From Planctomycetota bacterium (GTDB lineage: Bacteria; Planctomycetota; MHYJ01; WSZJ01): DNA of 64,000 nucleotides. The translations under genes and the position numbers were made by a program. The notes beneath the pieces were generated by a model. That model had not been told where the DNA came from. It was given only the letters and a program-made list of their open reading frames with translations, and did not search any database. Positions within the stretch are counted from its first letter, which is position 1; every line of letters begins with the position of its first letter. The stretch is from NCBI GenBank assembly GCA_009773755.1, contig WSZJ01000008.1:9160-73159 (forward strand), read 5' to 3'. Positions 48,144-64,000 of the stretch are shown here, one piece after another.

Positions 48144-50078
48144 ATGCTCACGGTAACCATCGAGCTGGACGGGAAAGAGACGACCCGGCACCTCGACGGG
48201 AAATCAACCGTGATCGGACGCTCCCGTTCCTCGGACATCCGGATCGATCACCCCAGGGTTTCCGGCCGTCACGCAAGAATCCAGATCGCTGACGACGGAA
48301 CCGCGGAGCTGGTCGATGCCGGAAGCCGGAACGGCCTCCTGGTCAACGATGTGAAGGTCGACCGCGTCGCCGTGACTGACGGGCTCGCCGTAACGATCGG
48401 TCCAGCCCGATTCCTCTTCTTAACAGGCGGTGGCCAGGCCCGAGCGGAAAGTCTGCAGCGGTTGCAGCTTCCGGACCCCGGAGCGTCGGGAATCTCCCCC
48501 CCTCCCGCCCCCGGCTCGGGCCTGGGAACCACCCGCCGTGGCGAGGTCAGCGCCACAGGCGCTGACCCCGTCACGGCGGCCCTGAGCGAGGGTGAGCGAA
48601 GCGAGCCCCAGTCGAAGGGCTCTACCGAGCCACCGCCAAAAATCGAAGCAGCGCCTGCTTCCCATTCTCCAGCCGCTTCCCTCCTCGCCGAGCTCGTCAG
48701 GAAGTCGGCGAAATCGGAAACACCTGCTCTCGAGGTGGCCCCTCCTCCCTCCCCATCTCTCTCATCCCCCAAACTCCTCGCCCCCTCCCGTCGCGCCGTC
48801 CTGCGAGCACGCGACCGCCGCTTCACCCTCAAATCCCTCGTCGCCGCCGCCACCGCTTCCGGCTCCCTCGCGCTGTCCCTCGGCATCCACGGTTTCATCG
48901 CGCTTCTCCTCACCGTCTGCGTCTACCGCCACTACATCACCGCGCCGCCGTCTCCGATCACCATCACACTCGCCCCGCCGAAGTCGATCTTCATTCCACC
49001 CGCGGACGCGTGGCAGGGGGACGGAAAGGGGATCCCGGACGGAGCCGATGCGCCGAAATTGACCAAGCGTCCCGCGACGCCGGACTTCGCGGATCAGGCG
49101 ACGGAGCCCGAACTGTCGATGGATGCGACCGCGCTCCCGGATTCAGCCCCCGTTCCCGACGCCTCGCCGCGAGCCTCTTCCGCCCCCCGTCCCGCGATTT
49201 CGCTGTCGAAGCGGAGCGCGATGAAGAAGCTGGTGAAGCTGGAGCTGGTGCCGGACGACGGGTCGTGGGAGAAGGGGCTGAAGCCGGTGCCCGGGCTGCC
49301 GGTGGAGAAGAAGATCGGCGGGAAGCCGAACGACGCCGTGGACATCAAGCCCGGCGACGACCCGGCGGAGCTGGTGCGCGGCAATCTCGAGAACGGGCAG
49401 CAGGGGGGGTGGAAGACGGTCGCGATGATGGAAGCGGGCGAAATCGCGGTCGTGACGGGTGAATACGACACGGTGCAGCGCGTGCTGGACAAGCTGAAGC
49501 TGCGGTACACGACGATTGAGCCGCGGAAATTCGGCGGGGTGAAGCTGAGCAGCGTGAAAGTGCTGATCATCAATTGCCCCGGCGAGCTGGACGGTTCGGG
49601 GATCCTGAAGCTGCGGAGTTACGTCGACAAGGGCGGCTGGGTCGTGAGCACGGACTGGGCGCTGTCTCCGATCAAGGAAGCGTTTCCGGGGTATCTGAGG
49701 AACGTGTCGCTGTCGCCCGAGACGTGGGTCGGAATCGAGGAGGCGGAGGGGGCGAAAGGAGATCCTCTGCTGAAGGACGTTTTCAATTTCAAAGGGGACG
49801 CGACGAAGTGGTACCTGGAAGAGCGGTCGTACCTGTTCAAGGTAGACGATAAGGCGAAGGAGAAAGTGAAAGTGCTGATCGAGAGCGCGGAGATGAAGAA
49901 GAAGTGGGGGACGGGGTGTGTGGCGGCGACGTTTGACTATGGAAAGGGGCGAGTGCTGCACATTGTGAGTCACCTGCAGCAGGTCTCGACGGACCCGAAG
50001 GCGCACTACTCGATGTACCAGTTCCTCGCGAACTGGCTGATTGGCGCCGCGGGGGTGGTGAGGGAAGAGAAGAAGTAG
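48144..50078 (+). CDS. FHA-domain protein with a Pro-rich linker, a TM segment and a C-terminal globular domain
   Basis: The N-terminal FHA pattern is STVIGRSRSSDIRIDHPRVSGRHARI...NGLLVND. The TM segment is LALSLGIHGFIALLLTVCVY. The C-terminal ~230 aa are non-biased. Confidence 0.8.
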   Translation: MLTVTIELDGKETTRHLDGKSTVIGRSRSSDIRIDHPRVSGRHARIQIADDGTAELVDAGSRNGLLVNDVKVDRVAVTDGLAVTIGPARFLFLTGGGQARAESLQRLQLPDPGASGISPPPAPGSGLGTTRRGEVSATGADPVTAALSEGERSEPQSKGSTEPPPKIEAAPASHSPAASLLAELVRKSAKSETPALEVAPPPSPSLSSPKLLAPSRRAVLRARDRRFTLKSLVAAATASGSLALSLGIHGFIALLLTVCVYRHYITAPPSPITITLAPPKSIFIPPADAWQGDGKGIPDGADAPKLTKRPATPDFADQATEPELSMDATALPDSAPVPDASPRASSAPRPAISLSKRSAMKKLVKLELVPDDGSWEKGLKPVPGLPVEKKIGGKPNDAVDIKPGDDPAELVRGNLENGQQGGWKTVAMMEAGEIAVVTGEYDTVQRVLDKLKLRYTTIEPRKFGGVKLSSVKVLIINCPGELDGSGILKLRSYVDKGGWVVSTDWALSPIKEAFPGYLRNVSLSPETWVGIEEAEGAKGDPLLKDVFNFKGDATKWYLEERSYLFKVDDKAKEKVKVLIESAEMKKKWGTGCVAATFDYGKGRVLHIVSHLQQVSTDPKAHYSMYQFLANWLIGAAGVVREEKK

Positions 50079-50082
50079 CCGT

Positions 50083-50264
50083 CCGTTCCCTTTCCCTTTC
50101 CCTTTCCCGTTCCCGTTCCCGACTGCGACGGCGCAGCGCGCACCCGCTTTGATCTCTCGCGCCGCAAATGACCCGACGCCCTTAATCTTCGCCGGCGTTG
50201 ACGCTTGGAGAATTCGGTGCCTTGTCGCAATCGGGAAAGGGAACGGGAAAGGGAAAGGGAACGG
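50083..50264. repeat. Inverted repeat of CCCTTT/CCCGTT hexamers with a 108-nt spacer
   Basis: The arms are 50083-50122 (CCGTTCCCTTTCCCTTTCCCTTTCCCGTTCCCGTTCCCGA) and 50231-50264 (TCGGGAAAGGGAACGGGAAAGGGAAAGGGAACGG), with 6 versus 5 units. The element lies between the FHA gene stop and the radical SAM gene start. Confidence 0.9.
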
Positions 50265-50350
50265 CACAGCCACGGCTCGCCTTGCGGAAGCCCCCCTCCC
50301 CCCTTAACATCCCCTTGGTAAAGTCTTCCCCTTCGCAAAGGTTTCCCCCG

Positions 50351-52813
50351 ATGTTCCACGACAATTCCATCCTCCACGCCCCGCCTCTTCTCCAGTTCGG
50401 CGAGAACGGCGCTCGCGTGCTCGTGGACCCCGACGGCCCCAACTGGGTTGCGACCGACCCGCGCGGCGCAGCGATTCTCGGCTGGGTGGACGGCCACCGC
50501 ACGGTGCGAGACATCGCCGACCGTTACGCGCGCGAATTCGCCGTCGAGCCGGCGAAAGCCTGGATCCACGTCCGCACCGCGATTGAGGACGGACTTCGCA
50601 CTCACCTGCTCGGCGAAAAACCGTTCACGCGCAGTCCCTACGCCGGACGCGCCGCGCACAAGAAACCGCAGTTGCGGGAACTGTGGATCCAGGTCAACAA
50701 CCTCTGCAACCTGACTTGCTCGCATTGCCTCGTCTCAAGCGGGCCGGAGGGGGCGAAAGGGTTTTCGCGGGAAGTTCTTTTCGGCGTCGCCGACCAGGCC
50801 GTCGCGCTCGGCGTGAAGGAATTCTTCGTCACGGGCGGCGAGCCGTTCTTGCGCGAGGACATTTACGACTTCATCGCGAAGGTCACCGCGACGGCCGGCC
50901 TCACGATCCTCACCAACGGAACACGCTGCGACGCGAAGCGGCTCGCGGCGCTTCCCCACCGCGACCGCCTGCGGCTGCAGATCTCGTGCGAAGGCGCGAC
51001 GCCGGCAACGAACGACCCGGTGCGCGGCGAGGGGACGTTTGAGCGGATCGTGAAGGGAGTGAAGGAACTGGTGTCGGCGGGGGTGCCGCACCTGACGCTG
51101 TCGTGCGTGGTCACAAATAAAAACATCGATGAGCTGCCGGCGTTCCCGGCGCTCGCGAAAAAGCTCGGCATCGAGTCGGTGCACTTCATGTGGCTCCACA
51201 AGCGCGGCCGGGCGATCGAACCGGGCAGCGACTTCTTCGTTCCGGTCGATCGCCTGATCCGGCAGATGCGCGCGACGAGGAAAGCTGCAGTCGTGGCCGG
51301 CGTGCGCGTCGACAACGACGAGGCCTTCAGGCTGCGGCTCGACCGCGCCGCCGGCGACAAGCTCGACCTCGGCAACGCGGGCGTCGAGTCGCTCTGCGTG
51401 AATTACGATGGCAAGGTCTACCCGAGCGCTTCGTTCAGCGGCGTGCCGGAGCTCCTCTGCGGCGACATCGCGACGCAGAAGCTCGACGCGATCCTGCGCG
51501 ACGCCCCCGTCTGCCGCGAATTCCAGCGGGCGTCCGTCCGCGAAAAGGCCCTCTGCCACGACTGCCCGCTCAAGTTCCTCTGCGGCGGAGGCGACATCGA
51601 ACACTCCTACTGGGCCTCGGGCGGCTCCGTGCTGGGCGCCGATCCCTACTGCGAACTCTGGAAGGCGACCATCGCCGACCAGTTCGAGGCGATGTCACAG
51701 GAAGCGCTGTCCCAGGTGAACCGGAAGTCGGGCTTCGACGCGCCCTACGCGGTCCGCGCGATGGGACAGGGCGAAAAACACTGCGCGAGCGAATACCGGC
51801 CGCTTCCCGGCGAAGTCACGGTCTCCACGACTCACTCGAACTGCGTGCTGTCCGTCGACATCGACCAGGCGCGGCAGCGCGTCCGAAAGTACTACGGAAA
51901 GGCGGCGGAAGAGCCCAAACAGGAGCTCTGCTGCCCGACCTCGTACCCGAAAGACCACATCGGTCACATCCCGAAGGACGTCATCGACCGCTTCTACGGC
52001 TGCGGCTCCCCCGTTGCTCTCACCGAACTCAAGGAAGGCGAAACGCACCTCGACCTGGGAAGCGGCGCCGGCATCGACTGCTTCATTGCGAGCAAGTTCG
52101 TCGGGAAGACGGGCAAATCGATCGGCGTGGACATGACCGACGAGATGCTCAAGGTGGCGCACGCGTGCAGGCCGATCGTCGCGAAGAATCTCGGCTGGTC
52201 GAACGTCGACTTCCGCAAAGGCTTCCTGGAAACGCTTCCCGTCGAGCCCGCGAGCGTCGACTGCGTGACGTCGAACTGCGTGATCAACCTGAGCCCGGAC
52301 AAGTCGAAGGTGTTTGCGGAAATGTGGCGCGTCCTGAGGGATCACGGCCGGATCGTGGTCAGCGACATCGTGAGCGAGATCGAGGTGCCGGCGCACCTGC
52401 GCGGCAACGAGCGGCTCTGGGGCGAATGCCTGAGCGGCGCGCTGACGGAGGACGCGTTCATGGCGGGACTGGAAAAAGCCGGGTTCTACGGCGTGCAGGT
52501 TCTCAAGAAGGTCTACTGGAAGAACGTCGACCAGTTCGCGTTCTACTCCGTGACGGTCCGCGGCTACAAGTTCGAGAAGAAGGCGGGCTGCGTCTACGTC
52601 GGCCAGACCGCGATCTACCAGGGGCCGGCGAAGGCGATCGTCGACGAGGAGGGGCACTTCTTCCCGCGAGGCGTCGCCGTCGAAGTCTGCACCGACACCG
52701 CCGCGAAGCTGCAGAAGGCGCCCTGGCTGGGGATGTTCGCCGTCACCGATCCAACCCGCGAGCGCCCCGCCGACTGGCAATGCTGCGGCGCCGACGGCAA
52801 GTGCTGCCCATGA
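50351..52813 (+). CDS. Fusion protein: PqqD-like N-terminal domain, radical SAM core with SPASM/twitch-like Cys cluster, ArsM-like SAM methyltransferase and Cys-rich tail
   Basis: The ATG is at 50351. The PqqD-like segment is WVATDPRGAAILGWVDGHRTVRDIADRYAREFAVEPAKAWIHVRTAIEDGL. The radical SAM motif is CNLTCSHC and the Cys cluster is CHDCPLKFLCGGG...DPYC. The methyltransferase part has CCPTSYP, YGCGSP, LDLGSGAGID, SNCVINLSPDK and WGECLSGAL. The tail is WQCCGADGKCCP. Confidence 0.8.
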   Translation: MFHDNSILHAPPLLQFGENGARVLVDPDGPNWVATDPRGAAILGWVDGHRTVRDIADRYAREFAVEPAKAWIHVRTAIEDGLRTHLLGEKPFTRSPYAGRAAHKKPQLRELWIQVNNLCNLTCSHCLVSSGPEGAKGFSREVLFGVADQAVALGVKEFFVTGGEPFLREDIYDFIAKVTATAGLTILTNGTRCDAKRLAALPHRDRLRLQISCEGATPATNDPVRGEGTFERIVKGVKELVSAGVPHLTLSCVVTNKNIDELPAFPALAKKLGIESVHFMWLHKRGRAIEPGSDFFVPVDRLIRQMRATRKAAVVAGVRVDNDEAFRLRLDRAAGDKLDLGNAGVESLCVNYDGKVYPSASFSGVPELLCGDIATQKLDAILRDAPVCREFQRASVREKALCHDCPLKFLCGGGDIEHSYWASGGSVLGADPYCELWKATIADQFEAMSQEALSQVNRKSGFDAPYAVRAMGQGEKHCASEYRPLPGEVTVSTTHSNCVLSVDIDQARQRVRKYYGKAAEEPKQELCCPTSYPKDHIGHIPKDVIDRFYGCGSPVALTELKEGETHLDLGSGAGIDCFIASKFVGKTGKSIGVDMTDEMLKVAHACRPIVAKNLGWSNVDFRKGFLETLPVEPASVDCVTSNCVINLSPDKSKVFAEMWRVLRDHGRIVVSDIVSEIEVPAHLRGNERLWGECLSGALTEDAFMAGLEKAGFYGVQVLKKVYWKNVDQFAFYSVTVRGYKFEKKAGCVYVGQTAIYQGPAKAIVDEEGHFFPRGVAVEVCTDTAAKLQKAPWLGMFAVTDPTRERPADWQCCGADGKCCP

Positions 52814-53919
52814 CGGCAGCCCTCGTCATCGCAGTCCTCGCCGTCGCCTTCGCGAACGGGGCCAACGACAACGTCAAGGGCGTCGCGACGATTCTCGGTT
52901 CGCGCACCGCGCGCTACCGGACCGCCATGGCGTGGGCGACGATCACGACGCTCGCCGGAGCCGTGGTGTCTATCTGGTTTGCGGAAGCGCTGTTCAAGGT
53001 CTTCGGCGGCGCGGACCTCGTCCCGGCCGGAGTTGCGGCGACGCCGGTGTTCCTGTTCAGCGCGGCGTGCGGCGCGGCGGGAGCCGTGCTCATCGCCACC
53101 GTGCTGGGCCTCCCGATTTCAACGACCCACGGCCTCATGGGCGCGCTTCTCGGCGCCGGCCTGGTCCTCGCCCCCCAGGATCTCCGCTGGAGCGTCCTCG
53201 GATCCAAGTTCGCGCTTCCCCTCGCCCTCTCCCCCGTAGCCGCCATGCTCGCGACGCTCGTCCTCTACCCGCTATTTCGCGGCGCACGCAAATCGCTCGG
53301 CGTAACGGCCGAATCCTGCGTCTGCATCGGACAGAAAGTTGTCGCGACGTGCCCGACTCCCGCCGCCGCCGTCGCTTACATGGAACAGCACGTCGTCCCC
53401 ACCCTCGAAACCGGCACCACCGCCTGCTGCACCCAGCGCTACAACGGCGCCGTCGCCGGCGTCTCCGCCCAGCAGGCCCTCGACTCCGCCCATTTCCTCA
53501 CCGCCGGAGCCATGTCCTTCGCCCGCGGCCTCAACGACGCGCCGAAAATCGCCGCGCTCGCCGTGGCCGCCAGCATCATGGGCGTTCGTGGAAGCGTCGC
53601 CCTCGTCGCCGCCGCGATGGCGGTCGGCGGGATCGCGCTCGCGAAGAAAGTCGCGCGGACGATGAGCGAGCGAGTCGCGGAGATGAACACCGGCCAGGGT
53701 TTCACCGCCTCCCTCGTCACCTCGGCGCTCGTCATCAGCGCCACCGCCTTCGGCCTCCCCGTCTCCACAACCCACGTCTCCTGCGGCGCCCTCTTCGGCA
53801 TCGGCACCGTCAACGGCTCGGCGAAGTGGAAGATGATCTGCACAATTCTGCTCGCGTGGGTGACGACTCTCCCCGTCGCGGCGCTGATCGCAATGGCGGG
53901 CGCGGCAATTCTGAAATAG
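52810..53919 (+). CDS. PiT (Pho4)-family inorganic anion transporter, divergent
   Basis: The ATG at 52810 overlaps the upstream TGA (ATGA). There are ~10 hydrophobic helices. Duplicated signature-like motifs are FANGANDNVKGVAT (N-half) and FARGLNDAPKIAAL (C-half). Confidence 0.7.
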   Translation: MTAALVIAVLAVAFANGANDNVKGVATILGSRTARYRTAMAWATITTLAGAVVSIWFAEALFKVFGGADLVPAGVAATPVFLFSAACGAAGAVLIATVLGLPISTTHGLMGALLGAGLVLAPQDLRWSVLGSKFALPLALSPVAAMLATLVLYPLFRGARKSLGVTAESCVCIGQKVVATCPTPAAAVAYMEQHVVPTLETGTTACCTQRYNGAVAGVSAQQALDSAHFLTAGAMSFARGLNDAPKIAALAVAASIMGVRGSVALVAAAMAVGGIALAKKVARTMSERVAEMNTGQGFTASLVTSALVISATAFGLPVSTTHVSCGALFGIGTVNGSAKWKMICTILLAWVTTLPVAALIAMAGAAILK

Positions 53920-53945
53920 CCGGTTCCCTGCTAGCATCGCGTCCG

Positions 53946-54551
53946 ATGAGCAGTTACGGAAATCTGAATTCGACGGAGTCGCTCGGCTCCGAACCCGATC
54001 TCGTAAGCGGGCAGCTGATCGCCTGCGGCAAATACATCGTGCCTGTCGGATGGATGTTTGCTGCGTCCTCATCGGACCGGATTCGCGGTGTCTCGCCGGA
54101 AGACGAATTCGAGTTTTTTTTCTATCGCGTTCCGAAGCAGATGGCTCTTGTCCGGCTTCAGACCGCTGTAACCACGTTGAAGAGGGACCGATATTTCTGG
54201 AGCGTATTCCACCACCTCGAAGGACTTGTAGGCGAGATCTCCGACGCGCCTCACTCTCGCCTCGAGATCGAGTTCTCGGAACTGATTGCTATGGGCCACG
54301 AGCCATTCCTCGAGCAGGCGGCGCGCGCGGTCGATGAATTGCCCAGTTTCCTTGCGTCCATTATTGCCGGGGACCGAAGCGCCGCACTCAAGCAGCTCAA
54401 CTCGCTCGAGGAATTGTGCGGAATGAAATTGACGGGGAATTCGACGACGGACGAACCGGCATGGAAGGGAGACATGAAATTCCTTGGGATTCCTACGGCC
54501 GAAGAACTCTGCCGATGGTGGGTTCGCGGTCACTTCAAATCGGAGTTCTAG
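53946..54551 (+). CDS. Hypothetical protein (201 aa)
   Basis: The ATG lies 26 nt after the PiT stop. Composition is non-biased, G+C is lower than in the neighbours, and no motif was recognised. Confidence 0.5.
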   Translation: MSSYGNLNSTESLGSEPDLVSGQLIACGKYIVPVGWMFAASSSDRIRGVSPEDEFEFFFYRVPKQMALVRLQTAVTTLKRDRYFWSVFHHLEGLVGEISDAPHSRLEIEFSELIAMGHEPFLEQAARAVDELPSFLASIIAGDRSAALKQLNSLEELCGMKLTGNSTTDEPAWKGDMKFLGIPTAEELCRWWVRGHFKSEF

Positions 54552-55285
54552 GAACGCTTGTTCGCCCCGCCCTCCGCCACCAGCTTGCTCGCGCGCAGCA
54601 GCGACTCAAAAGTCCCCGCGTCCGACCACCAGCCGTCCAACACGTCGTGCGTCATCGTCCCCTGCTCGATGTAGAAATTGTTTACGTCGGTGATCTCGAG
54701 CTCGCCGCGGCCCGACGGCTTGCAGCGCTTGATGAATTCCCACACCTGCTCGTCGTACATGTAGATTCCAATGACCGCGAATTTCGACTTCGGCTGCTTC
54801 GGCTTCTCTTCGATTTTCACGACCTGCGTCCCCTTCAACTCCGGCACGCCGAACCGCTCGGGATCCGGCACCTCCTTGAGCAGGATCTTCGCGCCCTTCG
54901 CCTGCGCCCGAAACTTCTTCACCGCTTCAGCGATGTTCCTCTCGATGATGTTGTCTCCGAGCACAACCGCGATCCGCTCCCCCTTCCCGAACTGCTCGCA
55001 GATCCCCAGCGCTTCCGCAATCCCGCCCTCGCCTTTCTGGTAGGCGTAATTGATCTGCTTCAGCCCGAATTCCTCGCCGTTGCCGAGCAGCTTCAGGAAA
55101 TCCCCCGCCGAGTTTCCGCCCGTAACGATCATGATGTCCCGGATCCCTGCGTCGACGAGCGCCTGGATCGGGTAATAGACCATCGGCTTGTTGTAGACCG
55201 GCAGGAGGTGCTTGTTGGTCACCTTGGTGAGCGGCATCATTCGGGTGCCAAGGCCGCCGGCGAGGACGATTCCTTTCACGGGCAT
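54548..55285 (-). CDS. Sugar-phosphate nucleotidyltransferase (RmlA-like, short form)
   Basis: The N-terminus KGIVLAGGLGTRMMPLTKVTNKHLLPVYNKPMVYYPIQALVDAGIRDIMIV closely follows the glucose-1-phosphate thymidylyltransferase signature. Confidence 0.85.
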   Translation of the reverse strand: MPVKGIVLAGGLGTRMMPLTKVTNKHLLPVYNKPMVYYPIQALVDAGIRDIMIVTGGNSAGDFLKLLGNGEEFGLKQINYAYQKGEGGIAEALGICEQFGKGERIAVVLGDNIIERNIAEAVKKFRAQAKGAKILLKEVPDPERFGVPELKGTQVVKIEEKPKQPKSKFAVIGIYMYDEQVWEFIKRCKPSGRGELEITDVNNFYIEQGTMTHDVLDGWWSDAGTFESLLRASKLVAEGGANKRS

Positions 55286-55355
55286 CTCCTTTTGAAGGGG
55301 CGCGAGTGTACCCGCAAGAGGAGGAACGGTTGATCGAAACGAAGCCGCGGCGGGC

Positions 55356-55769: not shown

Positions 55770-56810
55770 GTGACCACGGAAAACCGGGAGGGATTGATCG
55801 AAACGGCTGTGCGGCGCATGCCGAAGGCGGAGATGCATTTTCATTTCGAAGGGGCGTTCCGGTGGTCGACGGTGCGCGAACTGCACCCGGACGGGCGGGC
55901 GCTCCCGGAGATCCCGCCGTGGCATGGAAAGCCCTTTGAGAACTGGGAAGCCTTCACCGCAGTCTTCAGCCAGTTCCTGAAACCCGTGACCGGCAAGCCG
56001 GAGTGGATCGAACGCCACGCGCTCGAAGCGCTCGAAGACCTCGCTCTTCAAAACGTGCGCTACGTCGAACTTCTCGTCTCGCATCGCTTCCATGCGTGGC
56101 GCGGCCTGTCCGAACGCGAGGTCTGGGAAGCGGTCGTGCGAGGCCGAGCGCGCGCGCAGGCGAAACACCGGATCGACGCGCCGCTCTTCCTGGGCGTCTC
56201 GCGCGACCAGCCACCCGAGGCGGCGGAAGCGATCTTCGAGCAAATCGCGGAATTCGCGGTGCCCGCCGGGTGGCTGAAAGGGATCGACCTGCAGAGCGAC
56301 GAGCGTGCGCGTCCGAACCGCGATTTCGCGCGGCTCTACGCGAAAGCGGCACAACTCGGGTTGAAATTGCGCGCGCACGCGGGCGAACACGGGGGAGCAG
56401 AAAACGTGCGCGACGCGGTGGATCTGTGCGGAGCCCTCCACATCTCGCACGGCACGCGCGCCGCCGAGGAGCCGGCGCTCGTCGCCTACCTGGCCCGCAC
56501 CGGCGCCTGGCTTCACCTGTGCCCGTCCAGCAACTGGCTCCTCGGAGTCTGCCCGTCCATCGCAGCCAATCCCCTTCGCAAGCTTCAAGACGCCGGCGTC
56601 CGCTGCACCGTCAACTCTGACGACCCGCTGCTCTTCGCGACCGATACGACGCGCGAGTACCTGATCGCGACAACGGAAATGGGGTTCAGCCGTTCGGAAA
56701 TCGCCGGGCTTGCGAAGAATGCTTTTGGAGCCAGTCTATTGGCCGATCGCGACATCGCGGAAGCGTGCGCCGAGATTGACCGTTGCCTCAGCACCAGGAA
56801 ATCACCATGA
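55770..56810 (+). CDS. Adenosine/adenine deaminase family amidohydrolase
   Basis: The metal-binding motif is PKAEMHFHFEGA, with HAGE and VNSDDPLLFATDTTREY near the C-terminus. The start is GTG 55770 or ATG 55818. Confidence 0.8.
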   Translation: MTTENREGLIETAVRRMPKAEMHFHFEGAFRWSTVRELHPDGRALPEIPPWHGKPFENWEAFTAVFSQFLKPVTGKPEWIERHALEALEDLALQNVRYVELLVSHRFHAWRGLSEREVWEAVVRGRARAQAKHRIDAPLFLGVSRDQPPEAAEAIFEQIAEFAVPAGWLKGIDLQSDERARPNRDFARLYAKAAQLGLKLRAHAGEHGGAENVRDAVDLCGALHISHGTRAAEEPALVAYLARTGAWLHLCPSSNWLLGVCPSIAANPLRKLQDAGVRCTVNSDDPLLFATDTTREYLIATTEMGFSRSEIAGLAKNAFGASLLADRDIAEACAEIDRCLSTRKSP

Positions 56811-56960: not shown

Positions 56961-57740
56961 CTACTTCGAGAGCATTCCGGACGCCGGGCTCGACGGATTT
57001 CCTTCGAAGGACCGCTTCGGAATCCGCCCGGCCAGGAACGCCAACCGCCCGCCGATCACGCCGTGCTTCATCGCCGCCGCCATCTTCGCCGGGTCCTTCG
57101 CGTGGGCGATCCCCGTGTTGCACAGCACCCCCGCGGCGCCGAGCTCCATCGCGACAGCGACGTCGGAAGCGGTGCCGACGCCCGCGTCGACGATGACGGG
57201 GACGGCGAGTCGATGGAGGATGATCTGCAAATTGTGCGGGTTCAGGATCCCGAGCCCGCTGCCGATGAGCGACCCGAGCGGCATCACGGAAGCGCACCCC
57301 GCGTCCTGCAGCTTCAGCGCCGTCACGGGGTCGTCGCTCGTGTACGCCATCACGACGAACCCTTCCTTCACCAGCACCCGCGCCGCCTTCAGCGTCTCCT
57401 CCACGTCCGGCAGCAGCGTCTTCTCGTCCGCCAGAACCTCAAGCTTCACCAGGTCGCTCAGCCCCGCTTCCCGCCCCAGCCGCGCATAACGCAGCGCGTC
57501 ATCGGCGTTGAAGCACCCCGCGGTGTTGGGGAGGATCTTGAAGCGCTCCCGGTCGATGCGCGTGAGGATCGACTCTCTCGCCTTGAGATCGACGCGGCGC
57601 ACCGCGACTGTGACGCAATCCGCGCCCGAGGCGTCGAGCGCCGCGGCCATGACGTCGAGGGTCGCGTACTTCCCCGTCCCGACAATCAGTCGCGACCGGA
57701 ACTCGTGTTTTCCAACTTTGAAAGCATCCCCGTCGTTCAT
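56961..57740 (-). CDS. thiG: Thiazole synthase
   Basis: Motifs [23 protein letters not shown] and [13 protein letters not shown]. 259 aa. Confidence 0.95.
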
Positions 57741-57743
57741 CGA

Positions 57744-57773
57744 CCCTTTCCCTTTCCCGTTCCCTTTCCCGCC
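57744..57773. repeat. Solo CCCTTT/CCCGTT hexamer tract filling the thiS-thiG spacer
   Basis: The sequence is CCCTTTCCCTTTCCCGTTCCCTTTCCCGCC. It uses the same unit family as the arms at 50083-50264 and the tract at 63244-63279. No inverted partner lies nearby. Confidence 0.85.
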
Positions 57774-57782
57774 AATTCCCTG

Positions 57783-57983
57783 TTACCCGCCCCCGACGAA
57801 GCTCACCACCTCAACCCGGTCCCCGTCCTTCAACATCCGCCCAGCCCTCTCCGCTCTCACGACGATCTCCAGGTTGACCTCAGTCGCCACCATCGGCTCC
57901 CGGAGCCCGATCTCCCCGAGCAGTCCGTCGAGGGTCATTCCTTCGCGGACCTCTCGTTCGTCCCCGTTGAGCGTGATCTTCAC
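57783..57983 (-). CDS. thiS: Sulfur-carrier protein ThiS
   Basis: 66 aa, GTG start, ubiquitin-like pattern ending in VSFVGGG. Confidence 0.85.
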   Translation of the reverse strand: MKITLNGDEREVREGMTLDGLLGEIGLREPMVATEVNLEIVVRAERAGRMLKDGDRVEVVSFVGGG

Positions 57984-63201: not shown

Positions 63202-64000
63202 CTATTTCGACTTCCCCTCGGCCCCGCCTTGATCCGCGCCGTTGCCTTTCCCTTTCCCTTTCCCTTGCCCTTTCCCGCCCGCCTCTTTCTTCTCCGTCTC
63301 GATTCTGGGAAACAGGACCGCCCCCTCCCTGACTTTATGCCCCGCCGGCAGCGCCTCCCACTTCCCCGGCAGCCGCTCCGGTTTCGCCGGCAATCCGAGT
63401 TGCTCCCGGATTTTCTCCGCTGTCGAGGGCAGGAACGGGTGCAGAAGCGCCGAAATCCGCCCGATCGCCGTCGCCAGGTTCGTCATCACGGCCGCCACGC
63501 GCCCGGCCTTCCCCAGCTTGTTCAGCGCCCAGGGCTGGCTTTCCTCGATGTACGAATTCGAGCGGCGGACCGCATCCCAGATCCTCGTCAGCGCGCCGCT
63601 CAGGTCCTGCTTATCCATCAGCGCCGCAACCTCGTTCGAACACGCTTCCATGTGCGCCACCAGATCCGCGTCGGTCCCGCCCGGCTCCGTCGTCGCGGGC
63701 ACGGCCCCGCCGCAGTACGTGTTCACCATCTTCAGCGTGCGGTGCAGCAGGTTTCCGATGTCGTTCGCGAGATCCGCGTTGTAGCGCGCGATGAACGAAT
63801 TCCACGTGAAGTCCCCGTCGCGGTCCCACGCGATCTCGCGCAGCAGGAAATACCGGAGCGCGTCCGCCCCGTGCGGCTCGATGACGTCGAACGGATCCAG
63901 CAGGTGCCCCGTCGACTTCGACATCTTTTCGCCCTCGTAGTGCACCCAGCCGTGCCCCCAGACCTGTCTGGGAAGCGGAACTCCGGCGGACAGGAGCATT
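63202..64000 (-). CDS. metG: Methionine--tRNA ligase, 5'-partial in this window (N-terminus lies beyond nt 64000)
   Basis: The KMSKS motif and anticodon-binding helices (NDIGNLLHRT..., QPWAL) are present. The normal end LFPRIE is followed by a repeat-encoded tail TEKKEAGGKGQGKGKGKGNGADQGGAEGKSK. Confidence 0.9.
   Translation of the reverse strand, partial: MLLSAGVPLPRQVWGHGWVHYEGEKMSKSTGHLLDPFDVIEPHGADALRYFLLREIAWDRDGDFTWNSFIARYNADLANDIGNLLHRTLKMVNTYCGGAVPATTEPGGTDADLVAHMEACSNEVAALMDKQDLSGALTRIWDAVRRSNSYIEESQPWALNKLGKAGRVAAVMTNLATAIGRISALLHPFLPSTAEKIREQLGLPAKPERLPGKWEALPAGHKVREGAVLFPRIETEKKEAGGKGQGKGKGKGNGADQGGAEGKSK
63244..63279. repeat. CCCTTT-type hexamer tract inside the 3' end of metG
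   Basis: The sequence is GCCTTTCCCTTTCCCTTTCCCTTGCCCTTTCCCGCC. It is translated on the minus strand as GKGQGKGKGKG. Confidence 0.85.

Follow-up and report, generated by a model that had tools for sequence, protein, structure and literature searches.

A radical SAM-ArsM methyltransferase fusion coupled to a PiT-family permease in a Planctomycetota genome: a candidate organoarsenical biosynthesis module

To our knowledge, only two radical S-adenosylmethionine (SAM) routes to carbon-arsenic (C-As) bonds are known, those of ArsS and ArsL. ArsS adenosylates dimethyl As(III) (DMAs(III)) to 5'-deoxy-5'-dimethylarsinoyladenosine (PMC13598754). ArsL, of the arsinothricin cluster arsQML, is described as a non-canonical radical SAM enzyme that transfers a 3-amino-3-carboxypropyl group (bioRxiv 10.1101/2024.02.01.577332), and no arsenosugar-type accessory genes are reported for the three-gene arsQML cluster (PMC8552651). 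Here we describe a gene pair in a 64,000-nucleotide stretch of Planctomycetota DNA (contig WSZJ01000008.1 of assembly GCA_009773755.1), which we call the window. The first gene encodes an 820-aa protein (the fusion) that joins a PqqD-like domain resembling a recognition element (RRE) of RiPPs (peptides that are made by ribosomes and post-translationally modified), a radical SAM core, a SPASM domain and an ArsM-type methyltransferase; the second encodes a PiT-family permease. We regard this pair as the core of a module that makes organoarsenicals and is related to the arsenosugar pathway. In it, the bifunctional fusion would stand in for ArsM plus ArsS, and we put the probability of this reading at roughly 55%. 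The features of the pair are as follows.

50351-52813, + strand: fusion gene, 820 aa, with PqqD-like RRE, radical SAM, SPASM and ArsM-type methyltransferase parts (open reading frame (ORF) list, Pfam, NCBIfam, AlphaFold2 and Foldseek)
50417-50578, + strand: PqqD-like/RRE domain, residues 23-76 (PF05402, 27.9 bits; cut-off 23.4)
50693-51139, + strand: radical SAM core, residues 115-263, carrying the motifs CxxxCxxC (C119/C123/C126) and GGEP (162-165) (PF04055, 75 bits)
51383-51652, + strand: SPASM auxiliary Fe-S domain, residues 345-434 (PF13186 over 345-406, 25.4 bits; cut-off 21.5)
51848-52720, + strand: predicted ArsM/AS3MT-type methyltransferase with ArsM C-terminal domain, residues ~500-790 (NF008823, 4fr0 alignment, Foldseek and invariant cysteines)
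52781-52807, + strand: vicinal-cysteine tail WQCCGADGKCCP (CCGADGKCC) with C811, C812, C818 and C819, near-invariant in homologues
52810-53919, + strand: PiT-family permease, 369 aa, translationally coupled to the fusion by an ATGA overlap (PF01384, 190.2 bits)
53317-53430, + strand: central loop of the permease with the conserved cysteines C170xC172...C207

The fusion begins at the first ATG in its frame, and its homologues begin at the same residue. The original prediction, made from the sequence before any database search, had described a single ORF of ~820 aa with four parts whose stop overlaps the start of a PiT gene. The overlap was read directly (context ...TGC TGC CCA TGA), with the PiT start ATG at 52810-52812 and the fusion stop TGA at 52811-52813. 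All four domains scored above their Pfam gathering cut-offs, from the PqqD/RRE-like N-terminus (PF05402) through the radical SAM core (PF04055) and the SPASM-like auxiliary cluster (PF13186) to Methyltransf_31 (residues 561-709, 95.9 bits). The motifs it had quoted were all located in the protein: CNLTCSHC supplies C119, C123 and C126; CHDCPLKFLC...DPYC supplies C402, C405, C411 and C434; CC, YGCG, SNCVINL and GECLSGA correspond to C527 and C528, C551, C643 and C693, respectively; and the vicinal-cysteine tail ends the protein.

A protein search returned 1439 matches at E ≤ 1e-10 among the scored candidates. The best 120 of these 1439 proteins are all full-length fusions of 807-900 aa; they share 48-90% identity with the query, with at least 96% of it covered. 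With full-length homologues at 48-55% identity this abundant, the fusion is not a chance ORF. They are named in the databases only as 'methyltransferase domain-containing protein' or 'radical SAM protein with 4Fe4S-binding SPASM domain'. Scanning a single genome of each species and retaining the best 80 loci (all near full-length matches) placed the fusion in Acidobacteriota (31 loci), Planctomycetota (14, with nine anammox lineages), Gemmatimonadota (13) and Nitrospirota (5), and further in Elusimicrobiota, Omnitrophota, Latescibacterota, Chloroflexota and others. L001, from a Planctomycetota metagenome-assembled genome (MAG) and syntenic with the window, is the closest locus. The family thus comprises at least 120 full-length proteins and at least 80 genome loci, which represent more than 12 groups at the phylum level, anammox Planctomycetota among them. 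No NCBIfam model reached its cut-off on the fusion, and a full-text literature search found no description of the fusion or of its link to PiT, which agrees with the statement in the original prediction that no characterised example of this architecture was known. We concluded that the fusion is a large, conserved, unnamed and uncharacterised family, a widespread version of a known pathway type.

Three side observations concern individual family members. A contig labelled 'uncultured Bifidobacteriaceae' (L037) carries a fusion with the same neighbour layout as the Vicinamibacterales MAG L036, and is probably a mis-binned contig. The homologues P0075 and P0109 read …ADPFRF(L/I)xGGGD… and DPYY in the SPASM region and retain their motifs for radical SAM and ArsM. 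At the P0109 locus, the usual fusion neighbours described below are all missing.

The methyltransferase half was assigned from hidden Markov model ranking, pairwise identities and a fold search. Its six best NCBIfam matches are all ArsM-type, with NF008823 at the top (232.9 bits, below the cut-off of 263). Among solved structures, CmArsM, CrArsM and human AS3MT come closest in sequence (E = 3e-38 to 7e-35), with the alignment running over residues 507-790. The original prediction had matched motifs of this half to those with the As(III)-binding cysteines of ArsM; in the phmmer alignment to CmArsM (PDB 4fr0, E = 3e-38; 4fr0/4kw7), C527, C551, C643 and C693 align to C44, C72, C174 and C224, and all four are invariant among 53 homologues, as are the SAM-fold residues D568, G570, G572, G574 and D594. 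An AlphaFold2 model of the whole protein (pLDDT 87.3, pTM 0.82) was compared with solved structures by Foldseek, and the top 13 PDB matches were all ArsM/AS3MT (E = 1e-22 to 1e-19). The ArsM C-terminal domain is present, since the CmArsM alignment extends to residue 790 and the arsinothricin (AST) ArsM model NF040538 is matched to profile position 355 of 356. These signatures mark the C-terminal half as an As(III) SAM methyltransferase of the ArsM type, complete and with all catalytic cysteines.

The confidence of the AlphaFold2 model is low at residues 809-820, so the tail is probably flexible. The original prediction had pointed to the vicinal cysteines here; a CC...CC-type tail also ends stand-alone ArsMs that are linked to ArsS. 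We considered the tail as a special feature of the fusion and rejected this, because it is common on such ArsMs.

In the radical SAM half, C119, C123, C126 and T161-G-G-E-P165 are invariant in the 53 homologues, and SAM cleavage is therefore expected. The RRE residues D26, P30, W32 and G39 are likewise invariant. The SPASM residues are C349, C370, C402xxC405x5C411xxxD415 and C434; C402, C405 and C411 are at least 90% conserved across the homologues, and D415 is invariant at the position of the last Cys of the canonical SPASM motif. Going by these conserved residues, the radical SAM enzyme of the N-terminal half is intact and has auxiliary-cluster ligands of the SPASM type. The best NCBIfam matches of this half were MftC, StsB, Rv1681, WgkB, ScmF and AhbD, all far below cut-off. 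In the Foldseek comparison, CteB (5why) was aligned over 471 columns including its N-terminal RRE, with a TM-score of 0.72 relative to CteB, followed by SkfB, SuiB, anSME, ChlB and PqqE. DUF3641 was not found in the fusion by Pfam. Both ArsM and ArsS family models had been put forward as a check on the original prediction; the ArsM models were top-ranked, if below cut-off, and the ArsS model TIGR04167 was not among the 25 best NCBIfam matches of the fusion. The ArsS of locus L086 (see below) shares 27.5% identity over 149 aa with the fusion, in the common core only. By sequence and predicted fold, the radical SAM half is not ArsS and resembles RRE-radical SAM-SPASM RiPP maturases such as CteB.

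The same resemblance suggests a rival reading as a RiPP-type maturase, in which the RRE binds a ribosomal peptide, the radical SAM-SPASM part cross-links it, the ArsM-like domain methylates a peptide thiol or other group, and the substrate is something other than arsenic. Over its N-terminal 470 aa, RRE included, the fusion matches CteB, SkfB, SuiB and ChlB, PqqD is above its Pfam cut-off, and MftC, StsB, WgkB and ScmF are among the best family matches. All maturase-model scores are far below their cut-offs, however; the four As(III)-binding ArsM cysteines are invariant, and the neighbors of the fusion are arsenosugar-cluster accessory and ArsC-like genes, not RiPP proteases or exporters. To look for a precursor peptide, all ORFs of 18-95 aa that lie no more than 3 kb from the fusion were taken from the 80 loci and clustered with blastp-short, and no genuine conserved family was found; the clusters that did appear were low-complexity or antisense-of-PiT frames. 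The original prediction had seen no precursor-like small ORF nearby, and the same holds across the 80 loci. The peptide substrate that it had offered as an alternative is thus left without support, and we regard a RiPP maturase as quite unlikely.

We examined the neighborhood of the fusion by clustering the ORFs of the 80 loci and counting the recurrent neighbors with a tblastn panel. PiT was found within 10 kb of the fusion in 38 loci; TIGR04282/DUF2064 was near it in 25, a MerA-like FAD disulfide reductase and a VTT/TVP38 protein in 19 each, a TIGR04283 family 2 glycosyltransferase (GT2) and DUF547 in 18 each, a TlpA-type thioredoxin in 13, DUF3179 in 11, and an ArsC-like low-molecular-weight phosphatase in 6. 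At least one of these was present in 68 of the 80 loci. The PiT-family transporter that the original prediction had noticed next to the fusion is therefore a recurrent partner: it directly adjoins the fusion in 24 loci (19 downstream on the same strand, from seven phylum-level groups, and five upstream), and the fusion-PiT pairing spans ~10 phylum-level groups. TIGR04282 and TIGR04283 are the NCBI 'arsenosugar biosynthesis glycosyltransferase' families, and representative neighbors scored 206.3 bits (cut-off 134) and 237.9 and 219.8 bits (cut-off 182), respectively. The best matches of the ArsC-like protein are arsenate reductases, below cut-off. ArsS was found neither in the 80 fusion loci nor in the window, and a second ArsM-like gene was seen in only 4-5 of the 80. 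A separate ArsS or other radical SAM partner near the fusion was considered and rejected, as the only other radical SAM genes in these loci were Tes-like (in Vicinamibacterales-type loci) and three B12-type enzymes.

The locus L086 connects the fusion to canonical clusters. It holds a homologue of the window PiT at 52% identity, in the gene order extracytoplasmic function (ECF) sigma, anti-sigma, DUF547, GT2, DUF2064, ArsM-like, PiT, radical SAM+DUF3641, MerA-like, VTT, GT2, DsrE, DsbD-thioredoxin. Its radical SAM+DUF3641 protein is ArsS (TIGR04167, 448.2 bits; cut-off 300), and its TIGR04282 (DUF2064) and TIGR04283 (the GT2 after VTT) proteins are above their cut-offs. A metagenome scan with the L086 ArsS as query gave 80 further loci, and neighbors were counted on the 43 loci of at least 6 kb: TIGR04283 was near ArsS in 20, TIGR04282 in 17, the MerA-like reductase and ArsM in 14 each, VTT in 11, PiT in 8 and DUF547 in 6. 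PiT often lies immediately beside ArsS; L086 and 9 metagenome loci have the same PiT subfamily as a neighbor of ArsS. The methyltransferase domain of the fusion shares 35-46% identity with the ArsS-linked ArsMs. With these shared neighbors and no ArsS in the fusion loci, one accessory set accompanies either ArsM+ArsS or the fusion. We concluded that, in related genomes, the fusion occupies the place of the separate ArsM and ArsS in arsenosugar-type clusters. The organoarsenical module coupled to PiT that had been predicted is thus supported by the PiT count, by the arsenosugar-family neighbors and by the same PiT subfamily standing between ArsM and ArsS in canonical clusters.

The neighborhood data also bear on a function in arsenic methylation and detoxification only, in which the Fe-S half is a redox or electron-transfer partner built into the protein that could, for instance, re-reduce the catalytic disulfide of ArsM, and makes no C-As bond. 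ArsM turnover needs disulfide reduction, and thiol-redox neighbors are frequent in the fusion loci (the MerA-like reductase in 19 of 80, TlpA and DsbD-type proteins); some lineages without SPASM cysteines keep the protein, and the window is without tailoring genes. Pure electron transfer, however, would have no need of the CxxxCxxC and GGEP motifs that are invariant in 53 homologues, and in the shared neighborhoods the fusion replaces ArsS, not just ArsM. We hold a role in detoxification alone to be unlikely.

The permease matches the PHO4 domain PF01384 over residues 16-361 of 369 (cut-off 33.7). The NCBIfam models of PitA and CysP gave 50.4 and 50.3 bits against cut-offs of 800 and 400. The subfamily of the window PiT is short (~370 aa), and no curated model is specific to it. 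C170, C172 and C207 of the central loop are conserved in 33, 30 and 33 of 34 fusion-linked PiTs, respectively, and are kept in 120, 119 and 119 of the 120 best database homologues; the CxC...C loop has no counterpart in the alignment to the solved Thermotoga maritima PiT (6l85). We considered this triad as a marker of arsenic clusters and rejected it, because it characterizes the subfamily as a whole, also those members whose neighbors are unrelated, and is by itself not readable as an arsenic signature.

Another metalloid or chalcogen (Sb, Se or Te) might be handled instead of arsenic, with PiT importing the corresponding oxyanion. The ArsM-related NCBIfam models include several selenoprotein fusions, ArsS is described as a '(seleno)protein' family, and thiol/selenol-redox proteins are among the neighbors; the nearest PiT equivalogs are the sulfate permease CysP and PitA, both far below cut-off. 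Set against this, ArsC-like arsenate reductase genes occur in 6 loci, the chemistry of ArsS on arsenic has been demonstrated, and the tri-cysteine geometry is that of the ArsM As(III) site. We find a substrate other than arsenic improbable.

For the organoarsenical module, we propose that the ArsM domain would bind As(III) on its cysteine triad and methylate it, with dimethyl As(III) as the probable end point. After that, the fused radical SAM domain may make a further C-As bond, either by adding the 5'-deoxyadenosyl radical to As(III), as ArsS does, or by coupling a substrate radical to As(III). Such a fusion would keep the toxic, oxidation-prone trivalent intermediate on the enzyme, and the flexible CC...CC tail is, more speculatively, a candidate As(III) carrier from one active site to the other. 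Going by what PiT proteins do, the most likely role of the coupled PiT is to bring in the arsenic oxyanion (arsenate, a phosphate analogue); alternatively, it may export the product. Because the radical SAM class is different and an RRE-like domain is present, the product may differ from that of ArsS. A tentative further version, which we think has a small but appreciable chance of being right, is that the RRE-radical SAM-SPASM half carries out an undescribed, sactisynthase-like radical C-As bond formation, while the ArsM cysteines, the CC...CC tail or an auxiliary cluster would bind the arsenic. Its product would be unlike that of ArsS and possibly attached to a peptide or to the protein's own tail, and the tri-cysteine PiT would be a dedicated arsenic importer, so that anaerobes such as anammox bacteria would be acquiring arsenic deliberately.

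Several points weigh against the organoarsenical module. None of TIGR04282, TIGR04283, DUF547, VTT, MerA-like, TlpA or ArsC-like genes was detected in the 64-kb window with the tblastn panel. The window therefore holds the two-gene core only (fusion and PiT), and sugar or lipid tailoring (TIGR04282/TIGR04283) is either absent or encoded outside it. The 'arsenosugar' names of the TIGR04282 and TIGR04283 families are themselves curated inferences, and TIGR04282 is typed hypoth_equivalog. ArsS could be encoded elsewhere in the fusion-bearing genomes. The other ArsS proteins share 24-27% identity with the fusion, in the core only, and since the radical SAM half resembles peptide-modifying RRE-radical SAM-SPASM enzymes, chemistry identical to that of ArsS is not implied; the reading does not account for a ligand of the retained PqqD-like domain. 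The SPASM cysteines are gone in P0075 and P0109 (alignment A1, columns ~520-560; locus L084). Three PiT homologues on long contigs have unrelated neighbors, so the subfamily occurs away from such clusters. The NF008823 score is also short of its cut-off, although the stand-alone ArsM beside the bona fide ArsS of L086 reaches only 188.3 bits on the same model; the cut-off is thus conservative, and the shortfall is no argument against the ArsM identity.

If the organoarsenical reading is true, the fusion family would be a third radical SAM route to C-As bonds, on a peptide-maturase scaffold fused to the methyltransferase that makes the likely substrate. Its members occur widely across uncultured lineages, most of them anaerobic (Acidobacteriota, Gemmatimonadota, Nitrospirota, Planctomycetota including anammox, Omnitrophota and Elusimicrobiota), and with this wide spread the fusion could account for organoarsenicals in sediments, groundwater and soils without ArsS. 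The recurrent coupled PiT with its cysteine triad raises the question of deliberate arsenic import by some bacteria. The two-gene core of the window is a compact construct for heterologous tests of the chemistry.

Some fusion loci have layouts of their own. Eight mostly Vicinamibacterales-type loci (L042, L052, L058, L059, L066, L072, L079 and L080) carry TIGR02453, DUF309, a SET domain protein and an alpha/beta hydrolase upstream (8/8), then in some a glycosyltransferase, then the fusion; DUF547 follows the fusion in four of them, and seven have a radical SAM protein of ~700 aa downstream. The best match of this protein is the tetraether lipid synthase Tes (309.5 bits, cut-off 450), which hints at a link to membrane-lipid modification, or at mere order-level synteny. 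In four Scalindua-type anammox MAGs (L014, L016, L019 and L022) the order is TlpA, PiT, a large cellulose-synthase-like GT2, DUF3179, a 466-aa GT87-like membrane protein and the fusion, with PiT 4-6 kb upstream and not adjacent. The MerA-like FAD disulfide reductase and VTT/TVP38 form an adjacent pair in L081 (7812-9953, fusion-type) and in L086 (9649-11784, ArsS-type).

In the window, the pair is flanked by the following unrelated genes.

48144-50078, + strand: FHA-domain protein, upstream flank
53946-54551, + strand: 201-aa ORF without a family, downstream flank
54551-55306, - strand: nucleotidyl transferase (translated from these positions)
55770-56810, + strand: adenosine deaminase
56961-57983, - strand: ThiG/ThiS, named from the translations alone

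The 201-aa ORF starts 27 nt past the PiT stop and has no Pfam family. Its GC content is ~56%, whereas that of the PiT gene is ~68%. L001, otherwise syntenic, does not have this ORF, which has the look of a lineage-specific insertion. A hexamer repeat (GGGAAM)n was found at four window sites (50083-50120, 50233-50264, 57745-57770 and 63239-63276), with 17 overlapping matches vs. 0.11 expected. Between the FHA gene and the fusion start, the first two of these make up an inverted repeat of 50 nt (86% complementary, 76 nt apart), which could be a REP-like (repetitive extragenic palindromic) element or a regulatory or terminator hairpin. A promoter/terminator scan of 49800-54700 gave no match, a scan that is uninformative for a Planctomycetota genome.

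Four kinds of described systems can be compared with this locus. The PiT permeases (PitA, CysP and 6l85) have full-length PF01384 in common with the window protein, and both conserved half-repeats align to 6l85; the window PiT differs in being short, in its CxC...C loop and in scoring only ~50 bits on the PitA and CysP models. The RRE-radical SAM-SPASM maturases (CteB, SkfB, SuiB, PqqE/PqqD and MftC) are alike in the domain order and fold of the N-terminal 470 aa, in the RRE and in the SPASM cysteines, and PqqE has an Asp at the fourth-Cys position of CX2CX5CX3C, as the fusion has D415. Unlike them, the fusion is without a precursor gene that could be found, is joined to an arsenic methyltransferase and is far below cut-off on the maturase models. 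Arsinothricin arsQML, to which the original prediction had likened the locus, follows the same logic, with a C-As bond formed by a radical SAM enzyme, methylation by ArsM and a dedicated permease, and NF040538 matches fusion residues 631-812 at 220 bits, far below its cut-off of 500. That part of the comparison stands, as does the stated difference of separate genes and another permease family; as the closest relative, however, arsQML gives way to the Synechocystis-type ArsM+ArsS arsenosugar cluster. This cluster shares with the fusion loci an ArsM-type methyltransferase and a radical SAM enzyme, the TIGR04282, TIGR04283, DUF547, VTT, MerA-like reductase and thioredoxin-like proteins, the PiT subfamily, and the CC...CC tail on ArsM. 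It differs in that here a radical SAM part of the RRE-radical SAM-SPASM class, without DUF3641, is fused N-terminally to ArsM, and the window is without glycosyltransferase-like tailoring genes. We concluded that the closest known system of the fusion is the ArsM/ArsS arsenosugar cluster, not arsinothricin arsQML.

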